IMG/VR virus record: IMGVR_UViG_2703718832_000006
DNA from: a virus
Taxonomy: Duplodnaviria; Heunggongvirae; Uroviricota; Caudoviricetes
Length of the DNA: 36,592 nucleotides
Direction: 5' to 3' (one strand)
In this document: in pieces, positions 4,748 to 35,144 of the stretch
Numbering within the stretch: the first letter of the stretch is position 1
Layout: each line of letters opens with the position of its first letter
Program-made: the position numbers and the translations under genes
The notes under the pieces: model-generated
The model's database searches: none
Told to the model about the DNA's origin: nothing
Seen by the model: only the letters and a program-made list of their open reading frames with translations

Positions 4748-7700
4748 GCGTCGTATCCCCCCTGATCGCTGTAGTTACTCCTAGCTTTTGCCTTCAGCCT
4801 GCGTTCACGTTCATCAAGCTGGCGGGCCACCTCCCGCGCAATATCCTGCGCACTTTGTCCTGGCTGCGTCTGAATGATGATCTGCGTCGGTGCCTCAATC
4901 CGTTGAACGGGCGGCACAGTGGCTGCACGACTCACCATCGCTTCGCCGCCTTTCGCGGGAAGTGCCAAAGGATGTAACGATGGAAGCTCTGTAGGCGCGG
5001 CAGCAACGCCCATCATTCCGGCAACAACCGCAGCCAGTGCAGCGGTATTTCTCCGGCTGGTCACGTTTGCCGGGCCGTTGACAATTTCCGGCCCGTTTTC
5101 ACCGACGATGCCAAACTGCCCGCGCGGGATATAGCCGCCGCTGTCATACATCCCCGCAAAGCCATATCCCCATGACGGAAAACCACCCGATGGCATCATC
5201 ACTTTACCGTCTGCATTCACCGTCGCAGGTTGCTGACGCGTCACGCTTTCCGGCAGTTTCGCCTTTGCAGCCTCTTTACTGACAATGCCGAGTTTATCCA
5301 GCAACCAGGAAACGCCGGATTTCAGGGAGTCCAGCGGATGCATGACCATATTCAGCCCTTCCGCCAGTGCCTCCCCGAATCGTCGCCCCATTGCCGCTGC
5401 GCTCTGCAGTTCGGCAGAGGTCGACTTAACAGGCGTCAGCAGATCAGTAAACCAGCCCCACAGCGCCTGCACTTTGTCGCCAATCCACTGGAACACGGGC
5501 TTAAGTGGTTCAAACGCTGCACTGATGGGACCTGCCGCCGCTTTGAATCCTTCCACCACGCCACCGAGAAATGCGGTGATGGGTTGCCAGTATTTCCAGA
5601 CAACCAGCGCCACACCCGCCAGTGCAGTAACCACAAGACCTATCGGACTAAGCAGAGCACCTAACAGACCAGATATGGCATACAGGGCAACGCGCAGCAT
5701 CGCCAGCGGACCAGATGCAAGCACTCGCAGCAACGCGCCTGCGGCTGCCAGTCCACCGCGCAGTACCGCCAGAGGATTCATAAACATCACAGCAACAGCA
5801 CGTAAACCGGATAATCCAGACCGCAAAAGTGCAACTGGCGCACCTGCTACAGTTTTCAGGACATTTCCCGTCAGTGATGCCGTGCGGCGCAAAGACGACA
5901 ACAGCGCAGTAAGTAAACCTGCGGCGTTGCCCGATGAAGCAAGCCCGCGTCGCAGCAGTGCCAGTGGTGCGCCAGCCAGCCAGGACAACGCGCTGCTGGT
6001 TCGAGTTACTGCTGCCGTAACGGAAGATAACGTTTTGATACCCAACACAGAGAATCCCAGACGGATCACTGCCAGCGGCCCCAGCACTGCAGCCAGCGCC
6101 ACCGCTAAGGTGCCGAGGCCGACGGTAACCGCAGCCACAACAGCCGATGCTTTCATCAGTGTGCCTGTCAGTTCCGGGTTAGCTTCCACCCAGCGACGCA
6201 ACGCCCCCGTGACGCTTTTCACCGTGTACAGAATATCCATCAGCGGCTGGCGCAGCGTTTCGCCCAGGCTGCTGAAGGTGTTCTGCGCTCCGGTTTTGAC
6301 CAGCAACCACTGCGCAGAAAGTGAATCCTTGTTAATGTCGGATTCTTTCTGCATGGAGCCGAGCGCATCATTGCCCGCTGTCAGTTTTAACTGACGCTGC
6401 AGTTCCGGCAGGTTGTTTGCCAGTTTCGCCGCGTCATCGCCAAACTCTTTACCAAACAACATAGTCATGGCAGACAGGCGCTTGTCCTGCGGCAGCGCGT
6501 TTACCTTCTCCAGCACGCGCTGGATGGTTCCCATCGCATCCTTCGTCATCTGCTTTTCAATCACTTCAGGATTGAGTTTCAGCAGATTCATCCCTTCAAA
6601 GAAACTCTTGCTTTGCATGGTGGCAATGGACAATTCACGCACCATCGCGTTTGCTGCACTGGCTGCAACCTCTGGCGCAGCGCCCAGTGTCAGGAAGGTG
6701 GAACCCAGCGCCGCCGCTTTACGATAATCCAGACGGTCAGCCACACCGCCCAGACGTTGCATCACATCAATGATGTCTGCCCCTTTCGACATGGCGTTAT
6801 CATCCAGATAGTTCAGCGCATCACCGAGCTGTTCAATATTGCGGGTGGGGATTTTGTAGAGCTGGGCGATTTTCCCCAGACTTTCTGACAGTTCATCCGC
6901 TGGCAGCTCAAAGGCTGTTGCCGCCTTTGCTGCCGTACTGGCGAAGGCCAGCAGGTCACGTTTCTGATCTTCCCAGCTGTCGTCAGGGTTTGCGACGTTC
7001 ATGCGCGCACCACCTTCAACCAGTGCAGCGAAGTCCACCGCACCGTTTTCCATCGGCAACTGTTCGCTGGCAGCCTTGATGGCATCCTGCATTTCATAAA
7101 AACGTGCAGTGCGGTTGCCATTATCGTCACGCAGACCATTGACCTGCTTTGCCACACCTTTCATGGCATCTTCCATGCTGGTATAGCTTTTTACTGCCGC
7201 CATCACTGGCGCACCCATTGCCAGCCCTGCAGCCGTGGTGGTGGCTCCGGCACCTGCAATACGATCACGCACCTCCAGCGAACGGGCATAACTGGCACGC
7301 GCTGCATTCATCCTGCGCTGAGCTTCCCCCAGTCGCTTCAGCCGCGCCTCCTGTTTCGAAAGTTCCTGGTTATAACGTGATGTTTCACGGGCTAAACGGG
7401 CAGTTGCTCCCGCATCGTCTTTCGCAGAAATTCCCGCCCGGTACAGTTCAGCACGCACAAGCGCCGTCTGCTGCTGCAGCTTTTTCTGGCGTTCTTCCAG
7501 GCGCTGAACAGCCAGCCGTTGACGGCCCAGAGCAACAACCTGACGTTGCGAAGGCGGCCCCATCGCTCCCAGTTCCTGACTGAGCAAATTTGCACGCTGG
7601 CGGGCATAGTTCAGCCTGTCGCCTAATTTCTGATTTTCTGCCTGCAGCTTTCGGAAGCTGTCCAGACTGCTCCCGGCCTGATCAAGCTGCTTTATTGCAT

Positions 7701-23916: not shown

Positions 23917-24959
23917 TGGGAAAGAGTAAGAAAAACCGCGCTGCGGCGACGAATCAGCTCAAGCATAAAAGCCAGACTTCAGCCGAAGCATTCAGCTTTG
24001 GCGATCCCGTTCCTGTTCTGGACCGCCGTGAACTGCTGGACTATGTGGAATGCGTACAGATGGACCGCTGGTATGAGCCGCCCGTCAGCTTTGACGGACT
24101 GGCACGAACCTTCCGCGCTGCCGTGCATCACAGCTCACCGATTGCAGTAAAATGCAACATTCTGACCAGTACCTACATCCCTCACCCGCTGCTCAGCCAG
24201 CAGGCTTTTTCACGTTTTGTGCAGGACTATCTGGTATTTGGTAACGCCTACCTGGAGAAACGCACGAACCGCTTCGGTGAAGTTATCGCCCTTGAGCCTG
24301 CTCTGGCAAAATATACCCGACGCGGGTTAGACCTGGATACCTACTGGTTTGTGCAATACGGTATGACAACCCAGCCGTATCAGTTCACGAAAGGCAGCAT
24401 TTTTCATCTGATGGAACCGGACATCAACCAGGAGATCTACGGCCTGCCAGGTTATCTTTCTGCCATTCCGTCAGCCCTGCTCAACGAGTCCGCCACGCTG
24501 TTCCGCCGGAAGTATTACATTAACGGCAGTCATGCAGGCTTCATCATGTACATGACCGATGCCGCGCAGAACCAGGAAGATGTGAACAACCTCCGCAATG
24601 CGATGAAAAGCGCCAAAGGTCCGGGCAACTTCCGCAACCTGTTTATGTACTCGCCTAACGGCAAAAAGGACGGGCTTCAGATTATCCCATTGTCAGAAGT
24701 TGCGGCGAAGGATGAGTTTCTGAATATCAAGAACGTGAGCCGTGATGACATGATGGCTGCGCACCGCGTGCCGCCGCAAATGATGGGGATTATGCCTAAT
24801 AATGTTGGAGGGTTTGGGGATGTGGAAAAAGCCGCGAAGGTTTTTGTCAGAAATGAGTTGGTTCCTTTGCAGAAAAGACTAGTTGAGCTAAACACCTGGA
24901 TAAATCAAAATATTGTGTCATTTAATGACTACATCCTTGACCAAGATAAGGGCATTTAA
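23913..24959 (+). CDS. portal (capsid vertex) protein Q
   Basis: 348-aa ORF overlapping the P stop by 4 nt; P2 gpQ position and size. Confidence 0.9.
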   Translation: MMGKSKKNRAAATNQLKHKSQTSAEAFSFGDPVPVLDRRELLDYVECVQMDRWYEPPVSFDGLARTFRAAVHHSSPIAVKCNILTSTYIPHPLLSQQAFSRFVQDYLVFGNAYLEKRTNRFGEVIALEPALAKYTRRGLDLDTYWFVQYGMTTQPYQFTKGSIFHLMEPDINQEIYGLPGYLSAIPSALLNESATLFRRKYYINGSHAGFIMYMTDAAQNQEDVNNLRNAMKSAKGPGNFRNLFMYSPNGKKDGLQIIPLSEVAAKDEFLNIKNVSRDDMMAAHRVPPQMMGIMPNNVGGFGDVEKAAKVFVRNELVPLQKRLVELNTWINQNIVSFNDYILDQDKGI

Positions 24960-25747
24960 TGCCCTTTTTTATCCTCATAAGCAACGTCATCGTATAATTT
25001 TAAGGCACCTAAATCATGTAATTGCTGCTTGAATTCCTTACTTAAACTAAACCCCTGAAGGAGAGAATATTTTTCAATAAATTTCTTGGCAGGCTTTCCT
25101 ACCGATGAAAAACCATTTAATAGCATCGCGCCAGATTCTATAGAAGATATTTGTGCTCTAACTAATTTCGCATACTTGGTTTTTTCTTTCTCAGTCAAAT
25201 AGTTAGAGTCATTGATATGTTTAAAAATATGGTAAATATTCCTGAAATAATGTCCCACATTCGCAAAATTGTCACCTTCCAGATAAACCATATTAACTGA
25301 AAGCTCTAACCTTTCATCCAAAGGAAGTGAATCATCCACAATATTAAGTAGGTTAAACTTCACTTCGGTAATGTATAATGAAAGAGCCTCCCGTCCTACA
25401 TACACTTTTCCATCTGAATACGTTGTTTTAATTTCTGATAAGTTATCTTTATGAAATCTTAGTAACTCAAATAACACAGACTCGAATGACTGAATAGATG
25501 ACTGCCTAGATGTAGAATATAGTGTGAAACAAACAAGCATGATAGAGATAAAGGCCAGAGCAGGATTCAGTACACCACCAATATAATCGCCAAACTGTCC
25601 CCATTTCTCTACGGAATCACTCCATGAATACATTCCAAATTTACAAACATAGCTAACAAACACTATCAGCATTAAAATAAAAGCCAAAAACAACAGTGAA
25701 TAAATAATGGCATAACGCTTAATATTTCGAAGAATGGCACCACACAT
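24956..25747 (-). CDS. membrane protein with two N-terminal transmembrane helices and a roughly 190-aa soluble C-terminal domain (cargo, function unknown)
   Basis: The track ORF 24956..25813 begins with a non-ATG codon and overlaps the upstream gene; the first ATG (Met 23, at 25747) has an AAGG about 10 nt upstream; two hydrophobic helices (AIIYSLLFLAFILMLIVFV and ALAFISIMLVCFTLY); AT-rich codon usage. Confidence 0.55.
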   Translation of the reverse strand: MCGAILRNIKRYAIIYSLLFLAFILMLIVFVSYVCKFGMYSWSDSVEKWGQFGDYIGGVLNPALAFISIMLVCFTLYSTSRQSSIQSFESVLFELLRFHKDNLSEIKTTYSDGKVYVGREALSLYITEVKFNLLNIVDDSLPLDERLELSVNMVYLEGDNFANVGHYFRNIYHIFKHINDSNYLTEKEKTKYAKLVRAQISSIESGAMLLNGFSSVGKPAKKFIEKYSLLQGFSLSKEFKQQLHDLGALKLYDDVAYEDKKGH

Positions 25748-25758
25748 CTCACAATACC

Positions 25759-26136
25759 TTATATATAATCCATATTTAAATCTATTGTATAAATACCTTT
25801 CCTCGCCACACAAGGAATAGATTTCTTTAAAATTCTAACATTTTTAATTTCCCACACATAATAACCTGGAGACCAAGGCTTATTAAGAGTTGTTTCTTGG
25901 TTTTGTTTTAAGTAATCCTCATATGACCAATTTCTAACTGAAACAAAATCGACAATAGCCATAGCCACCCCATGATCTATATCGCTTTGATTTTTAAGAT
26001 ATTTATCATTCTGAACAAGAATGACGTTTTTTAATGGTATCGTTTCAGGATACCACGACCGTATTTCGATAGATTTAGAACCATTTATAATATTTTCTAC
26101 CGCTGGAGTCAAAATCGATATAGCTTGAAACTTCAT
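25759..26136 (-). CDS. ASCH-domain protein (PUA-like fold)
   Basis: 125-aa ORF with the N-terminal GxKxxExR signature of ASCH domains (GSKSIEIR). Confidence 0.6.
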   Translation of the reverse strand: MKFQAISILTPAVENIINGSKSIEIRSWYPETIPLKNVILVQNDKYLKNQSDIDHGVAMAIVDFVSVRNWSYEDYLKQNQETTLNKPWSPGYYVWEIKNVRILKKSIPCVARKGIYTIDLNMDYI

Positions 26137-26201: not shown

Positions 26202-26747
26202 ATGTTAATTTTCATAGCAGGTGTTCATGGTGTAGGCAAAGGTTACTTGTGTTCATTTGCAAAAGATGATTTCGGGGTAACTCATGTAAGCGCAAGCGAA
26301 CTTATAAAAAATAATTCTAATATTAAATTTGATAACAGTAAGTTAACGGCCACACCTGATAAAAACCAATCAATATTACTTACGGCACTTAATGCATTAA
26401 AGTTAAAGGTATCCAATATTTTATTGGATGGTCATTTTACCTTAATAAATAAAAATGGAGATATTGAAGTTCTCAAGCAAGAAGTATTTGAGGAAATGGG
26501 GCTAGATGGAGTAATTTTAGTTGAGGAGTCTCCCGATACAATTAGAGAACGAATAATGAAACGAGATGGGAGTGATATTACTTATGATTTAAATAAGCTG
26601 ATGGAAGCTGAAAGAGAAAACGCAAAATATGTTACAAATAAAATCAATGTACCATTAATTATCTTAGAATCCCCAACAACAAACGATTTATCTATTGCCC
26701 TAGAAAAACTGGGCATGGTTAAGAAACATGCCCAGACAACATTATAA
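26202..26747 (+). CDS. small P-loop NTPase, kinase-like
   Basis: 181-aa ORF with a Walker A-like loop at the N-terminus (IFIAGVHGVGKGYL) and a hydrophobic-strand aspartate (ILLDGHF); GGAGG RBS before the ATG. Confidence 0.65.
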   Translation: MLIFIAGVHGVGKGYLCSFAKDDFGVTHVSASELIKNNSNIKFDNSKLTATPDKNQSILLTALNALKLKVSNILLDGHFTLINKNGDIEVLKQEVFEEMGLDGVILVEESPDTIRERIMKRDGSDITYDLNKLMEAERENAKYVTNKINVPLIILESPTTNDLSIALEKLGMVKKHAQTTL

Positions 26748-27134
26748 ATAACGATAAGACTGTGGGGCGACGCCGCCGGGAATCAACTCATTTAAGTCGA
26801 CAGGGAATTTATATCTTTTAGGGCTTTTGATGGAAATAGCAAAAGCCTTTTCTCTTTGGTGGAAATAATCTTTAAAAAAAGAATGTGTAATTCCTGCATG
26901 AGCTTTCGTTTTATCCCACAATTCTGAAGGGGATAGAGCAAGAATATCTCCTACTTTAAATTCACCTATTACTTTGCCAACCGGCATCGTTGCGTAAATA
27001 ACTATCGTATCAACATTTTTATTTCTAAAAATATTTTTCCGAAACTCATATTTTTTTTTACCAGAAAGTATACTCTCTGCATACTCTGGCTTAATCGATA
27101 ATAAAACTTTCATCAACACCTCCCTGTAAGACAA
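26742..27134 (-). CDS. ASCH-domain protein (PUA-like fold)
   Basis: 130-aa ORF with the ASCH GxKxxExR signature (SGKKKYEFR); the start may be Met 8 (27113); its stop overlaps the convergent kinase stop by 6 nt. Confidence 0.6.
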   Translation of the reverse strand: MSYREVLMKVLLSIKPEYAESILSGKKKYEFRKNIFRNKNVDTIVIYATMPVGKVIGEFKVGDILALSPSELWDKTKAHAGITHSFFKDYFHQREKAFAISIKSPKRYKFPVDLNELIPGGVAPQSYRYL

Positions 27135-27672
27135 TCTGCTTAAATGCTGAATCAGTTAGTGGTAAAAAACCCCAATAATCACTATTGGTATAACCTGTAA
27201 TATTCATGATTTCATCACGAATAACTCTTTTTTCCAAAGGGAAATTATAAGTAAACCGTATAATTATCGGATAATTTTTTTTCATATATAGAAGCTGTAA
27301 CTCATCTTCATCAAAAACGCTATAAGGTTCACAGTAATTCTTAAATTCCTCATAAGTTAAGAAATCGTGAATATCTTTAATTTCCTGAACCACACACACT
27401 GAAGTTGCAACAGATCTAAACCGAGCTGGACCTTGTCCATCTGAAGTACGATAAATAAGCAAATTATCTCCAGGCTTTAGGCTGGCTACCCCATGCATTT
27501 TTGTTAAGTATACTTTTTCAATACTGTTGGTATGTGATATATCAGCGATGATACCAGCACTCTCATTGTGGAGTTTTGACTCAGGGAAAAGACGTGTATG
27601 CCATGCAGGATAAATACTTAATAAATAATTTCTCCCCTGCAATTTGACTAAGGGATAATTAGCATAGCTCAT
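27091..27672 (-). CDS. hypothetical protein (193 aa), middle gene of the GNAT-ASCH operon
   Basis: ORF packed between the GNAT and ASCH genes with a 3-nt gap upstream and an overlap downstream; no motif I can assign with confidence. Confidence 0.5.
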   Translation of the reverse strand: MSYANYPLVKLQGRNYLLSIYPAWHTRLFPESKLHNESAGIIADISHTNSIEKVYLTKMHGVASLKPGDNLLIYRTSDGQGPARFRSVATSVCVVQEIKDIHDFLTYEEFKNYCEPYSVFDEDELQLLYMKKNYPIIIRFTYNFPLEKRVIRDEIMNITGYTNSDYWGFLPLTDSAFKQIVLQGGVDESFIID

Positions 27673-27675
27673 TTT

Positions 27676-28146
27676 TTACTCCTTCCATACCAAGTTTTTA
27701 AAGTATACACCTTCTTGCCCATTAATCGTAGAAAGATTTTTCCTCGCCTTTAAAACAAAACCATATTTAGTTAATAAGCGAATTAATCCTGAATGCTTAT
27801 CAAATATAGTAACATATACTTCTTTTAGTTTGTTTCTCATAGCAAATTGAAACATAATTCTAATAAAACGCTCTCCAAGTTTGGTTCCATGAGCATCGAT
27901 TTTAAATGTGCCAAGCTTTACTCGCTTCATCTTTGGAAACGTTGGAGTCATATCACTCAACTCTTCATCTTCTATTTTCAAATAGAGAAAACCATCGATT
28001 TCACCTAATTCATTACGTGATACAAACGCCTTATTTTTACCTTTTGAGAGAAACCAAACATCAAATCCTTCATAATCAGCTCTTAGGCTGTTAAAAAACG
28101 GATCTTTTAAATCGATATCACTAAAAAATTTTTCCTCGATAGACAT
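27676..28146 (-). CDS. GNAT-family N-acetyltransferase-like protein
   Basis: 156-aa ORF with a GNAT-like core pattern (HGTKLGERFIRIMFQFA ... LIRLLTKYGF); fold assignment is by eye only. Confidence 0.5.
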   Translation of the reverse strand: MSIEEKFFSDIDLKDPFFNSLRADYEGFDVWFLSKGKNKAFVSRNELGEIDGFLYLKIEDEELSDMTPTFPKMKRVKLGTFKIDAHGTKLGERFIRIMFQFAMRNKLKEVYVTIFDKHSGLIRLLTKYGFVLKARKNLSTINGQEGVYFKNLVWKE

Positions 28147-28380: not shown

Positions 28381-28408
28381 ACGCAAAAGCCCGCCAGTTC
28401 TGGCGGGC
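28381..28408 (-). terminator. putative rho-independent terminator after the DinI-like gene
   Basis: Stem gcccgccag / ctggcgggc with a 3-nt loop, followed on the minus strand by TTTTGCG. Confidence 0.45.
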
Positions 28409-28543
28409 CTTAGCAAAAACGATCCTCAAACGATCATGCGATCTCATGCGGCATAGACATGCACTACAGAGCTAACGCCTCGCAAGGGCTCGTTGTTCAA
28501 CCTTGCTGACGCCAGAAGCAAGTTCAGACGCCAGCAACGTTTC

Positions 28544-28777
28544 TTAATGCAGCCAGCTGTCGTCTTCCCACACCTTCTGCATAATTTTCATCACTTGTTT
28601 TCTTTCTTCGTCCTGTTGCAGCCCAGTCAGTTCCACACCGTTAGAGCTACCTTTGCGGATACGAATTACCGTTTTGGGATACAGGGGGCGCAGATTGCGG
28701 TAAAGCTCGGATTCAAGGGCGTCCAGGGTAGACTGGCTAATCTTCTGCTCTTTATCGATCATTATTTCAATGCGCAT
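28544..28777 (-). CDS. DinI-like protein (DNA-damage-inducible protein I family; 186 Tum C-terminal domain-like)
   Basis: Start placed at internal MRIEIMIDK... of the track ORF 28544..28849; about 77 aa; DinI-like N-terminus and acidic/aromatic C-terminus (WEDDSWLH). Confidence 0.72.
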   Translation of the reverse strand: MRIEIMIDKEQKISQSTLDALESELYRNLRPLYPKTVIRIRKGSSNGVELTGLQQDEERKQVMKIMQKVWEDDSWLH

Positions 28778-28787
28778 AAAAGACCCC

Positions 28788-28976
28788 TCAGCTGATGACA
28801 TCCATTGAGCGGTTGTATTCGTGGCTTCTGATTTTTGCCATGAGTTCATCTGTCAGTTCAGAAACCCACTGCAGGGCCAGCCCCTTCTCTTCATCACTAC
28901 ACTCACTAGCCGCTACAAGCTTAAGAAAAAAATCAATGCGCTGGAGCTTCAAAGACTCCAAAAAATAGTCCTGCAT
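28788..28976 (-). CDS. small hypothetical protein (62 aa), first gene of the SOS-box operon
   Basis: Internal ATG (Met 35 of the track ORF) preceded by AGGAGG at good spacing; a LexA box lies about 45 bp upstream. Confidence 0.5.
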   Translation of the reverse strand: MQDYFLESLKLQRIDFFLKLVAASECSDEEKGLALQWVSELTDELMAKIRSHEYNRSMDVIS

Positions 28977-29017
28977 CTTTCCTCCTATGACACCACAAGC
29001 AATACTGTATGTATAAC

Positions 29018-29037
29018 CACTGTTTATATTTACAGTA
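29018..29037. promoter_or_regulatory. LexA (SOS) box
   Basis: caCTGTttatatttACAGta, a perfect CTGT-N8-ACAG match with an AT-rich spacer, immediately upstream of the small ORF / DinI-like operon. Confidence 0.65.
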
Positions 29038-29129
29038 TATAATAATCTTACTGATGTAAAACGTTTTTTTACGTTCATCAGCCTGATATGCCTGGTATTA
29101 TTAAGAGCACGAATTGTTAACCCGCGTAA

Positions 29130-31544
29130 TTAATACAGGTTCCGCCACTTATCATCTTCCTGCAAACGCTGGTTCCGATAGAAGATACGCAGGCCTGCTC
29201 CTGACGGAATGCTGCCGCCGCGAAGGAGTAAATCGACTTCTTTCTCGCTGCCATCAAATCCTCTGGACTTCAGTTCATAGACGAGCTGCTGTCGTTGATG
29301 GTCTGTAATTCGCTGTTTGTAGTCTCTACGCCGTTTCGGTTTCACCAGGCGTAACCTTACAGCCAGTTCCCGGCGCTCTTTTTTGTTCATACTGTGCAGG
29401 TAATCGTGCAACTCCTTGTCATCCATACGGGTGATATCCGTTCTGGTATCCCCATCAGCTGATTTGTCTTTCCCTTGTTGGTACAAATTTTCAGCAAGGG
29501 GACAGTTATTGCCACGAGTCCAAGGGGCGCAAGCGCCCTGGTCGGCTGCCGCCTCCTGAACGTCAACGGCCTTACGAACCATTTTCCACTTCACTGCATG
29601 AGTGCAAATCTTGCCCTGTACAATGGGTGACCAGATGCCATAAATACGAATACCGTGATCGCCATAAGCAGTCGGCTCTTCGTTAATTTCATAAGCTGTT
29701 CTGATAAGGTGATATTTGCGGGGAACCAGTACGCCGCCCTGCTTCATGATGTAGGTGGCAAAACAACCAGCATCAGCAGCAGCCAGGATGGCATCAAGGC
29801 GCGGGTTATCCAGTACCGGCGCACCTGCTTTTTTGTCCCCCTGTTGCCTTGCCGCCTGACCAGCCAGCAATCGCAGTTCACGGTAAGCCTGACGCCCCGG
29901 AATGCCAAAGAAGCGGAATTGCTGAACACGATGCAGAGACGCCCAGGCATTAACGTATTCAGCATTATCACGCAGGGATTTACCCGTTTCCTTGCTGATC
30001 TCGCCAGCCAGACCACGCCCGTCAATGTTCTTACTGATGTATTTCGCGATGTAGCTTGTCGGTGTTCCTTTGCGTGGGTTTATCAGCTCAGATTTAAAGC
30101 GTGGACCAGTGTTATTACCCAGTTCCTCGCGGTCTTCACGGATGGCAAACTTACGCAACAATGCAGTAATGGCGCGGCGGTCTTTTTTGCGCATGAAACA
30201 CATGAGATGCCAGTGCACAGTACCGTCATGGTGCGGCTCAGCCACCCGCACGCCATACCAGCGCAACCCGGCTTTGTGCATAGCCTTACGAAATGCAGCA
30301 AACATGCCGACCAGATAATCGCTGCTTTGTCTTACCGTCGCATTTGTCCAGGTCGGGTTGGGTCTGCCGTTGTTGAGCGTGGAATGGAAACGTGACGGAC
30401 AGGTGATAGTGTAGAAAACGGCGCAGTCACCACGCATTTCTGCGATAAGCTCCAGACCTTTAACACAGGCCATCATCTCATTGCGGCGATGTGCCGGGTT
30501 GCTGCTGCTGGCGTTTACCACATCTTCCATATCCAGCGTGTCGCCGTCTTCGTTCACCAGTTCATGAGAACGGAAAAACTCCAGCGACTTACGGCGCTGC
30601 TCACGTTTATGCGTCACGGCTTCATAGCTGACATAGGGAGATGCTTTTTTGCTGACCAGGCAGACAGCACGCAACTGCTCTTCCCGCCATTCGCAACGCA
30701 TCTTCCACAATTTTCGATACCACCAGTCGGCGCAAAGCATACGTGCCAGCGAACCCGGTATGAGTTCATAGGGCACGGGTTTGCGGCGGTTTCTTTTCCG
30801 GCGGAGTTGCTCAAACGCAGGCGGGATAACATCCAGTCGCAGGGTTTCCGCTGCCACCTTTTCCCATGTCTTGCGGATTTCTTCTGGCTTAACGTCATCG
30901 GTGGCATATAAATCGCCACAAGCGGCATCAAGGCACATGCTCATATGCGCAGCTACCAGGGTGGACAGGCGTTTTACCTGATCCTGACTCATTTCAGGCA
31001 GGATCAGCAGGCCCTCAAGCCCTTGATGGCTTGCCATAAAACGGAAAGAAGCGGATAGCTGACTGTCGCGTACACAATCCAGTCGCTCCAGACATGGCTT
31101 AATCGTCTCACGCAAATAGCGGGAATAAGCCTTTGGCCTGCCCAGGCTGCTGAAGTATTCGATACGTTGCATCAGCGGCTTGCTGATGTGGGTAGGCTGG
31201 GCGCTGACATCTGCCAGAATGACCATGTCCGGGTTAAAAAGCTGCTGCTCATGCGCAAGCTTTGCGCGGCTAATGAGCTTATCCTGCTCCATTTCGCGCT
31301 GGACAGGATCACGGGATTCATTAAAGAAATAACGCTCCCAGACCTGCTCACTCAGTGCCTCGCGGCGCAGTTGTTCCTGCTCGTTATCGGCAGCATACAG
31401 AGTGATCAGGTTTGAAAGTGCAGACTCCGGCGCAAATTCCGCCGGGTCCAGATAAGGGTTAATGGCCTTTTTCGGGCCGTTCCATGAAAATGATGCAGCG
31501 GCCTCGTTAAAGCCGCTAGAGTTGCTCATATCGTCATGACTCAT
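29130..31544 (-). CDS. replication initiation protein A (rolling-circle nicking protein)
   Basis: 804-aa ORF in the position of P2/186 gene A; contains a tyrosine pair (YIAKYI) resembling the rolling-circle initiator active site. Confidence 0.88.
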
Positions 31545-34568: not shown

Positions 34569-35144
34569 GTGACCATGAATTTGGAGAAAGGCGGACGAGG
34601 CGCTATAGAGCGCATGGTAGAAGCTTATGGATTCAAAACTCGACAGGCGTTGTGCGATCATTTAGGAATCTCTAAAAGTACACTCGCCACACGCTACATG
34701 CGTGACTCATTCCCAGCAGAATGGGTAATCCAGTGCGCCCTTGAAACGGGCACCTCGCTTAATTGGCTCACAACCGGACATGGTTCAAAGCAAACTTCAG
34801 GTAATACAAATACTATGGAAGTTGCTAAATATGTATTATCTGATGGTGCCTTGCGTGAAGACGGTTTTTATATTTTTGATAAGGGATTTCTACCCTCTAC
34901 GTTTAAAAAACCTTTTGTCATCACAGATAACAATTCTGAATTTATTTGTGATAAAGAATTTGATGATATACGTGATGGTAAATGGGTAATAAGTATTGAT
35001 GGCGAAGTAACGATCCGTGACATTACTCGTTTACCCGGTGGAAGAATCTTCGTCGAGGGTGGAAACAGAGCCTTCGAATGTAAGATAGAAGACATTGAAA
35101 TAATTGGTAAAATTATAAGTTTAACAGTCAAGTATGTTAAATAG
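34569..35144 (+). CDS. immunity repressor CI (186-type, about 190 aa)
   Basis: 191-aa ORF with an N-terminal HTH (RQALCDHLGISKSTLATRYMRD) and a C-terminal domain; divergent from apl and upstream of int. Confidence 0.8.
   Translation: MTMNLEKGGRGAIERMVEAYGFKTRQALCDHLGISKSTLATRYMRDSFPAEWVIQCALETGTSLNWLTTGHGSKQTSGNTNTMEVAKYVLSDGALREDGFYIFDKGFLPSTFKKPFVITDNNSEFICDKEFDDIRDGKWVISIDGEVTIRDITRLPGGRIFVEGGNRAFECKIEDIEIIGKIISLTVKYVK

Follow-up and report, generated by a model that had tools for sequence, protein, structure and literature searches.

A probable SOS induction operon of the split tumA/tumB-like form in a Fels-2/186-type P2-like prophage

In the record of phage 186, the promoter p95 and the gene tum are annotated with "SOS-dependent transcription" and "expression repressed by LexA; inhibits CI DNA binding," and a truncated Tum is annotated with "modulates SOS induction." As cited, the work of Shearwin et al. 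(1998) describes Tum as binding CI and preventing its binding to the operators. In phages Fels-2 and PSP3, tum is split in two, the upstream gene of PSP3 being the antirepressor and the downstream one a DinI homologue (Lemire 2011, PMC3121763), and the PSP3 record lists a tumA, "similar to 5' end 186 tum; UV induction of prophage," together with a tumB. The antirepressors GfoA, GftA, and FsoA of the Gifsy and Fels-1 prophages target non-cleavable repressors and are able to work in trans, and Gifsy induction was unaffected by non-polar dinI deletions (Lemire 2011, PMC3121763). For the Escherichia coli HS prophage DuoHS, the supplement of the Phollow paper (PMC12055606, Nat Microbiol 2025) identifies ECHS_RS04495 as the "tum" that was removed by in-frame deletion. 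This deletion abolished the induction of DuoHS by mitomycin C while the host SOS reporter still fired, and a non-cleavable LexA, lexA(Ind-), likewise abolished it (PMC12055606).

Here, we analyzed a stretch of viral DNA of 36,592 nucleotides, referred to below as the window, for which a preliminary description had proposed a Tum-like, LexA-controlled antirepressor module. All of the elements named in that description are present, on the minus strand, and their positions were good to within a few bases. The module itself is supported by homology to both halves of Tum, by a p95-like layout, by the presence of 186-type CI, CII, and Fil, and by identity with the "tum" of E. coli HS. We are confident that what the window carries is the split (tumA/tumB-like) form of the operon through which P2-like prophages of the Fels-2/186 type are induced in the SOS response.

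Layout of the operon

Read along the minus strand, the order of elements is promoter, LexA box, AGGAGG, a 62-aa ORF, a 10-nt gap, a gene for a 77-aa DinI-family protein, and hairpins. The tumA-type antirepressor gene (28788..28976) starts at ATG 28976 and ends with the TGA at 28790–28788. Its Shine-Dalgarno sequence AGGAGG, which had been noted before and was found at 28981..28986, lies 4 nt before the ATG and is conserved in Fels-2 and HS. The dinI-like gene, equivalent to tumB, occupies 28544..28777 in a different frame; the arrangement is as previously described, with the gap after the tumA stop codon being 10 nt rather than 11. The operon is located directly downstream of an 804-aa P2 gpA-like replication gene (29130–31544), at the end of the early region of a phage with a 186-type CI, and this synteny is common to the related loci.

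Two longer ORFs at the locus were rejected as genes. The 96-aa ORF (29078–28788) is mechanical, as its extension holds the promoter and the LexA box, and the divergent family members all begin at the MxD... position, matching the 62-aa start. The 101-aa ORF (28849–28544), by which the DinI-like gene had been seen to extend upstream in another frame and overlap the small ORF, does exist; the extension is not coding, and the DinI domain starts only at its residue 38. With its MRIEI, the 77-aa protein starts where PSP3 TumB does and where the truncated Tum of 186 begins, at an internal GTG.

A variable cargo region separates the dinI-like gene from the portal gene, and in it PADLOC reports a candidate defense system, PDC-M11 (26742–28146, minus strand). 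It consists of PDC-M11B, with an ASCH domain (26742–27134, minus strand), and of PDC-M11A in two parts on the same strand and in the same frame, at 27676–28146 (model positions 11–160 of 357) and 27091–27672 (model positions 166–357). PDC-M11A may have been divided by a nonsense mutation or may naturally be encoded by two genes in this variant, the latter being considered because separate PHROGs exist for each half. The cargo also includes an AAA_17/adenylate-kinase-like gene (26202–26747, plus strand) and a 285-aa ORF (24956–25813, minus strand) with weak similarity to AbiC/AbiP (E = 1e-5).

The tumA-type gene and its dinI-like partner

The identity of the downstream gene could be established directly. 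Its product matches the Pfam family DinI (PF06183) over the complete model (positions 1–63 of 63; 82.3 bits against a cut-off of 24.2, E = 3e-23), falls in phrog_189, "RecA filament binding protein DinI," and aligns end to end with the structure of E. coli DinI (1GHH chain A, residues 1–75 to 1–77, E = 1.6e-6). It is 41% identical to residues 71–145 of 186 Tum, and where the acidic C-terminal helix was compared, its terminal WEDDSW aligned with WEDESW of Tum; by tblastn, it is 76.6% identical to the tumB region of PSP3. From its family membership, the protein would be expected to bind RecA filaments and to modulate the coprotease activity. It is probably accessory, since many relatives of the operon lack it and the dinI deletions mentioned above left Gifsy induction unaffected.

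For the 62-aa ORF, BLASTP gave no alignment at E <= 100, either against 186 Tum or against PSP3 TumA, nor did TumA against Tum, so that homology to Tum rests on profiles. In a first search, all homologues were at least 82% identical, which is not diverse enough for profiles; the diversity came from an exhaustive search of representatives, which gave 67 representative clusters, nearly all of them stand-alone proteins of 50–100 aa, with the family motif ES..LQRI.L..RLVA...C...DKELAL.W..EL. Using hhalign, a profile of 30 family members matched the family of the 186 Tum N-terminal half with a probability of 96.9% and E = 1.5e-10, the match running from residues 4–44 to 4–44 (41 columns) at about 20% identity to 186 Tum. 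The family HMM scored 36.5 bits against 186 Tum (p about 2e-13), and at the profile level the ORF is homologous to Tum residues 4–48. The PHROGs database, which is independent of this profile comparison, links phrog_698 (the family of the 62-aa ORF), phrog_8554, phrog_1993 (PSP3 TumA), and phrog_189 (Tum) through cross-hits, the N-terminal half of 186 Tum matching phrog_698 at 6.7e-6 and phrog_1993 at 2e-23. Seen from the 62-aa family, PSP3 TumA is a weak match (HMM p = 0.002; hhalign probability 14%). The alignment of both ORFs with 186 Tum suggested in the preliminary description thus bore out the proposed relationship, through profiles in the case of the smaller one, and the sequence evidence shows true homology between the 62-aa protein and the N-terminal half of 186 Tum.

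AlphaFold predicts, with confidence (pLDDT 86.6), that this protein folds as a hairpin of two helices, at whose turn the conserved Cys26 is located. Foldseek searches of the model against the PDB returned only generic helical hairpins, none at E <= 0.001, and no informative neighbor, and the only Pfam match was a sub-threshold, spurious one to PPP1R21_C. The family has no Pfam model, is of "unknown function" in PHROGs 698, 1993, and 8554, and appears as "hypothetical protein" in the RefSeq (PGAP) records that were checked; one UniRef entry and one GenBank phage record name it "levan regulatory (domain) protein." It is also often predicted as a protein of 84–106 aa (including 96 aa), reading across its own promoter (P0001, P0004, P0009, and others).

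That no family library names a function, that the fold search gave generic hairpins only, and that CI alleles vary widely beside a near-invariant antirepressor would also suit a small SOS-induced protein with another job, such as a toxin, a cell-division inhibitor, or a modulator of RecA or LexA, with prophage induction proceeding through the DinI-like protein or some other factor. We regard this as improbable. The gene whose deletion alone abolishes the induction of DuoHS, in cells where the SOS reporter still fires, encodes the identical protein, and the homology to the N-terminal half of Tum also argues for a role in induction, as does a personal communication of G.E. Christie to which Lemire 2011 (PMC3121763), in the part concerned, refers via Bunny et al. 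2002. Moreover, many family members have a LexA box and no DinI partner, which marks the small gene as the conserved core. By analogy with the genetics of E. coli HS, therefore, the 62-aa protein of the window is likely to be needed for SOS induction.

One such group of tumA-like genes without a DinI-like partner, found at 6001–6186 in each of the loci L007–L019, encodes proteins of 61 aa with a GTG start and a LexA box 16 nt upstream, in prophages of Citrobacter, Enterobacter, Klebsiella, Raoultella, and others. In one of them, L008, the gene is followed by a cargo pair, an AAA-ATPase and a subtilase-like protein. Signs of decay are seen at some tumA-like loci: L010 and L018 have lost the LexA box, tumA is truncated or frameshifted in L020, L024, and L025, and gpA is fragmentary at some loci. 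In L017 and L020, the CI gene, and not gpA, is directly upstream of tumA.

The preliminary description had left open whether the two ORFs were a Tum homologue split by a frameshift or a genuine two-gene arrangement. The former would make them one tum gene broken by a frameshift, a nonsense mutation, or a sequencing error, and thus a pseudogene in a prophage that is not SOS-inducible. It finds some basis in 186, where Tum is a single polypeptide of 146 aa spanning both halves, and in the window itself, where the halves are in different frames, with 199 nt between their start codons, and the mechanical 101-aa ORF overlaps the end of the first gene. However, the layout, with its stop codon, 10-nt gap, and +1 frame offset, is the same base for base in Fels-2 and E. 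coli HS, and 1143 of the 5426 complete E. coli genomes carry the two-gene module. Both genes come with a ribosome-binding site and a start codon of their own, the split version of HS works in induction, and PSP3 has a separate tumA and tumB, the tum genes of Fels-2 and PSP3 being called split in the literature as well. Even 186 translates its DinI-like half separately, from an internal GTG, and the close relatives of its N-terminal half that were listed are mostly short stand-alone proteins, many of which stop soon after the N-terminal half and have no DinI part. A broken tum is, then, very improbable, and the two genes are a genuine pair.

No fused antirepressor-DinI protein was found among the 67 representative clusters of the 62-aa family. 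The arrangements form a series, from fused in 186, through split in frame (PSP3, L022, and L023) and split out of frame (the window, Fels-2, and HS), to the antirepressor alone (L007–L019), in which the fused form of 186 looks like the exception.

Promoter, LexA box, and terminator

The SOS promoter was recognized through comparison with p95 of 186. The -35 hexamer TTTACA (29055..29060), invariant in Fels-2 and E. coli HS, is followed after a 17-nt spacer by the -10 hexamer TACTGT (29032..29037), which is at the same time the left arm of the LexA box. The corresponding elements of p95 are TTCACA and TACTGT with an 18-nt spacer, and the box starts at the -10 hexamer in both. A generic promoter scan detected no promoter at the SOS operon because TACTGT, a poor match to the sigma-70 -10 element, agrees with it at only 3 of 6 positions.

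The predicted LexA (SOS) box, TACTGTAAATATAAACAGTG (29018..29037, minus strand), is identical in Fels-2 and HS and, as previously noted, has a perfect CTGT-N8-ACAG core. The bare 16-nt core alone is not improbable, as 0.44 occurrences are expected per window and at least one was found in 35 of 100 shuffles. The complete 20-mer matches the full consensus TACTGTATATATATACAGTA at 17 of 20 positions and is the sole such site in the 36.6 kb, with none in 100 shuffles. It is upstream of the 62-aa ORF, as had been described, at a distance from the end of the box to ATG 28976 of 41 nt and not about 45.

Conservation was assessed in a sample of 20 loci from other Enterobacterales genera, with relatives 34–60% identical to the 62-aa protein. 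A LexA-like box was found 14–36 nt before the start codon in 18 of these divergent loci, with 8 of 8 core positions in 13 and 7 of 8 in 5; therefore, the position of the box is conserved and not due to chance. The intact examples among the 20 are all P2-like prophages, in which gpA lies upstream and a 186-type CI/CII close by, and an equivalent box is also present in 186 and PSP3. As judged from its sequence and position, a LexA box overlaps the tumA promoter, as is characteristic of Tum/TumA-type antirepressors.

The idea that the box is a chance AT-rich palindrome, and the operon constitutive or under a phage regulator, draws on the expected frequency of the bare core and on the lack of a detected canonical sigma-70 promoter, and is very unlikely given the shuffling result for the full 20-mer, its placement exactly on the -10 hexamer as in p95, its retention before such divergent proteins in other genera, and the block of DuoHS induction, from the same promoter and box region, in a lexA(Ind-) host.

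A second site, CAGTGGTTATACATACAGTA (29003..29022, minus strand), overlaps the first by 5 nt. It has a good right arm and a poor left arm, matches the consensus at 14 of 20 positions, and has a core resembling that of the single functional-looking box of locus L006, TACTGGTTATACATACAGTG; its function is doubtful. A distance of 41 nt between the good box and the start codon is shared by the window, Fels-2, and HS, whereas other family members have 14–36 nt. The second site and this longer distance together suggest that the overlapping degenerate and good sites are a duplicated or displaced operator.

At the other end of the operon, the terminator was recognized through RNA folding of 28550–28370, for which z was -3.76, a figure for the whole stretch. 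A hairpin at 28499..28541, directly 3' of the dinI-like stop codon, may be compared with the partial terminator t95a after 186 tum. It is followed by a GC-rich 11-bp hairpin and UUUU at 28382..28411, the probable terminator of the operon, which a consensus terminator scan did not list. The dinI-like gene is directly followed by these structures, and no third SOS-operon gene is present in the window (28382–28543). Such a gene is found elsewhere, as orf97 in 186, as STM2726 in Fels-2, and, in E. coli HS and Klebsiella phages, as a gene for a hypothetical protein of 225 aa; its coordinates are L005:20166–20843, L029:1012–1689, L003:2993–3724, and L001:5605–6336. What appeared to be a 760-bp "insertion" interrupting tum in the Klebsiella phages is actually this third operon gene, downstream of dinI.

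The CI repressor and relation to known prophages

The presumed target of the antirepressor is the 186-type CI immunity repressor at 34569..35144 on the plus strand, which was identified by Pfam (Phage_CI_repr, 2.8e-33; Phage_CI_C, 5.4e-29) and is accompanied in the window by a 186-type CII and Fil. Since its score against Peptidase_S24 was 16.9 bits, below the 23.3-bit threshold, CI is not a self-cleaving repressor of the lambda type. The switch would operate as follows. Going by the sequence, the homology to p95, and the lexA(Ind-) genetics of HS, in an undamaged lysogen host LexA bound to the box over the -10 hexamer would keep the operon off; upon DNA damage, active RecA would lead to the self-cleavage of LexA, and the promoter would fire. 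The 62-aa helical-hairpin protein would then accumulate, bind the non-cleavable CI, and block its binding to the operators, freeing the early lytic promoter and inducing the prophage. Direct binding to CI with loss of operator binding is predicted here by homology to 186 Tum, for which alone direct contact with CI is known and which is about 20% identical over the 41 aligned columns. The co-transcribed 77-aa DinI-like protein most likely would act on RecA filaments, tuning or limiting the SOS signal, as an accessory.

The window CI is 96% identical to that of DuoHS. Antirepressors at least 97% identical to that of the window are also paired with CI alleles that are only 38–56% identical overall (window versus L028 and L030–L034); because near-identical antirepressors sit beside such divergent alleles, a strict one-to-one co-evolution with CI was not seen. 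Across eight prophages with TumA proteins at least 97% identical, the N-terminal HTH domains of CI are 57–100% identical and the C-terminal domains 23–93%, or 23–60% once two near-identical pairs (window/HS and Fels-2/Kp4865-2, at 90–93%) are set aside. In 13 prophages, whose pairs are not independent, TumA identity had a Spearman correlation of 0.77 with the CI N-terminal domain and of 0.16 with the C-terminal domain. A co-variation specific to the whole CI was rejected, since TumA correlates equally with gpA (0.62 versus 0.62), which leaves no specific signal, and the domain-split co-variation is suggestive only. The pattern of CI identity fits, without proving, recognition of the DNA-binding domain and possible cross-induction. 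Tentatively, the TumA-type antirepressor might recognize a conserved patch of the N-terminal DNA-binding domain of CI and not the variable oligomerization domain, in which case a single allele could act against several CI alleles and induce other Fels-2-like prophages resident in the same cell, in parallel to the Gifsy antirepressors. A modest lead on prophage cross-induction, and one open to testing, is that a single antirepressor allele occurs with several CI alleles.

The closest relative of the operon is found in DuoHS, where the protein of ECHS_RS04495 is 100% identical to the 62-aa protein, and the promoter, LexA box, gap, and DinI-like gene (ECHS_RS04500) are about 97% identical to those of the window at the DNA level. 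The types of flanking genes are also the same (a replication endonuclease upstream and a 186-type CI/CII/Fil), while the third gene of DuoHS past the DinI-like gene (678 bp, hypothetical) is missing from the window and the downstream cargo differs. In the Salmonella phage Fels-2, STM2728 is 97% identical to the 62-aa protein and STM2726.1 is 98.7% identical to the DinI-like protein, with identical LexA box, promoter, spacing, and frame offset. The Fels-2 CI, however, is only about 40% identical to that of the window (67% in the N-terminal domain and 26% in the C-terminal domain), and Fels-2 carries its orf97-like gene STM2726 in addition.

PSP3 has the same order as the window, with a LexA box, a 60-aa tumA, and a 77-aa DinI-like tumB downstream of a replication gene. 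Its TumA is nevertheless very divergent, with no BLASTP match and weak profile similarity to the 62-aa protein (PHROG 1993 versus 698), and tumA and tumB are in the same frame, separated by a stop codon and 3 nt, whereas the genes of the window are out of frame. Phage 186 resembles the window in the position of the operon, in the LexA box on the -10 hexamer, in having homologues of both genes as Tum halves, and in the same kind of CI target. It differs in that the halves are fused in a 146-aa Tum with extra internal starts, the N-terminal half being about 20% identical, and in having orf97 as a further gene of the operon. GfoA, GftA, and FsoA of the Gifsy and Fels-1 prophages, which were compared at the level of their descriptions, are likewise small, LexA-controlled antirepressors co-transcribed with a dinI homologue (Lemire 2011, PMC3121763), although these prophages are lambdoid, have dinI first, and have other repressor families.

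The SOS operon of the window is therefore a correct but ordinary finding, since the identical antirepressor gene was already the subject of genetic tests in E. coli HS. It offers little new biology, being the usual SOS trigger of a very common type of prophage and occurring in about 1 in 5 complete E. coli genomes, and its practical value is in annotation, as a P2-like prophage in which the module is spotted can be predicted to be SOS-inducible. As the "tum" deletion in HS, Fels-2, the tumA/tumB genes of PSP3, the study of Lemire 2011 (PMC3121763), and the complete E. coli genomes counted above all indicate, it is the already known DNA-damage switch of Fels-2/186-type P2-like prophages.
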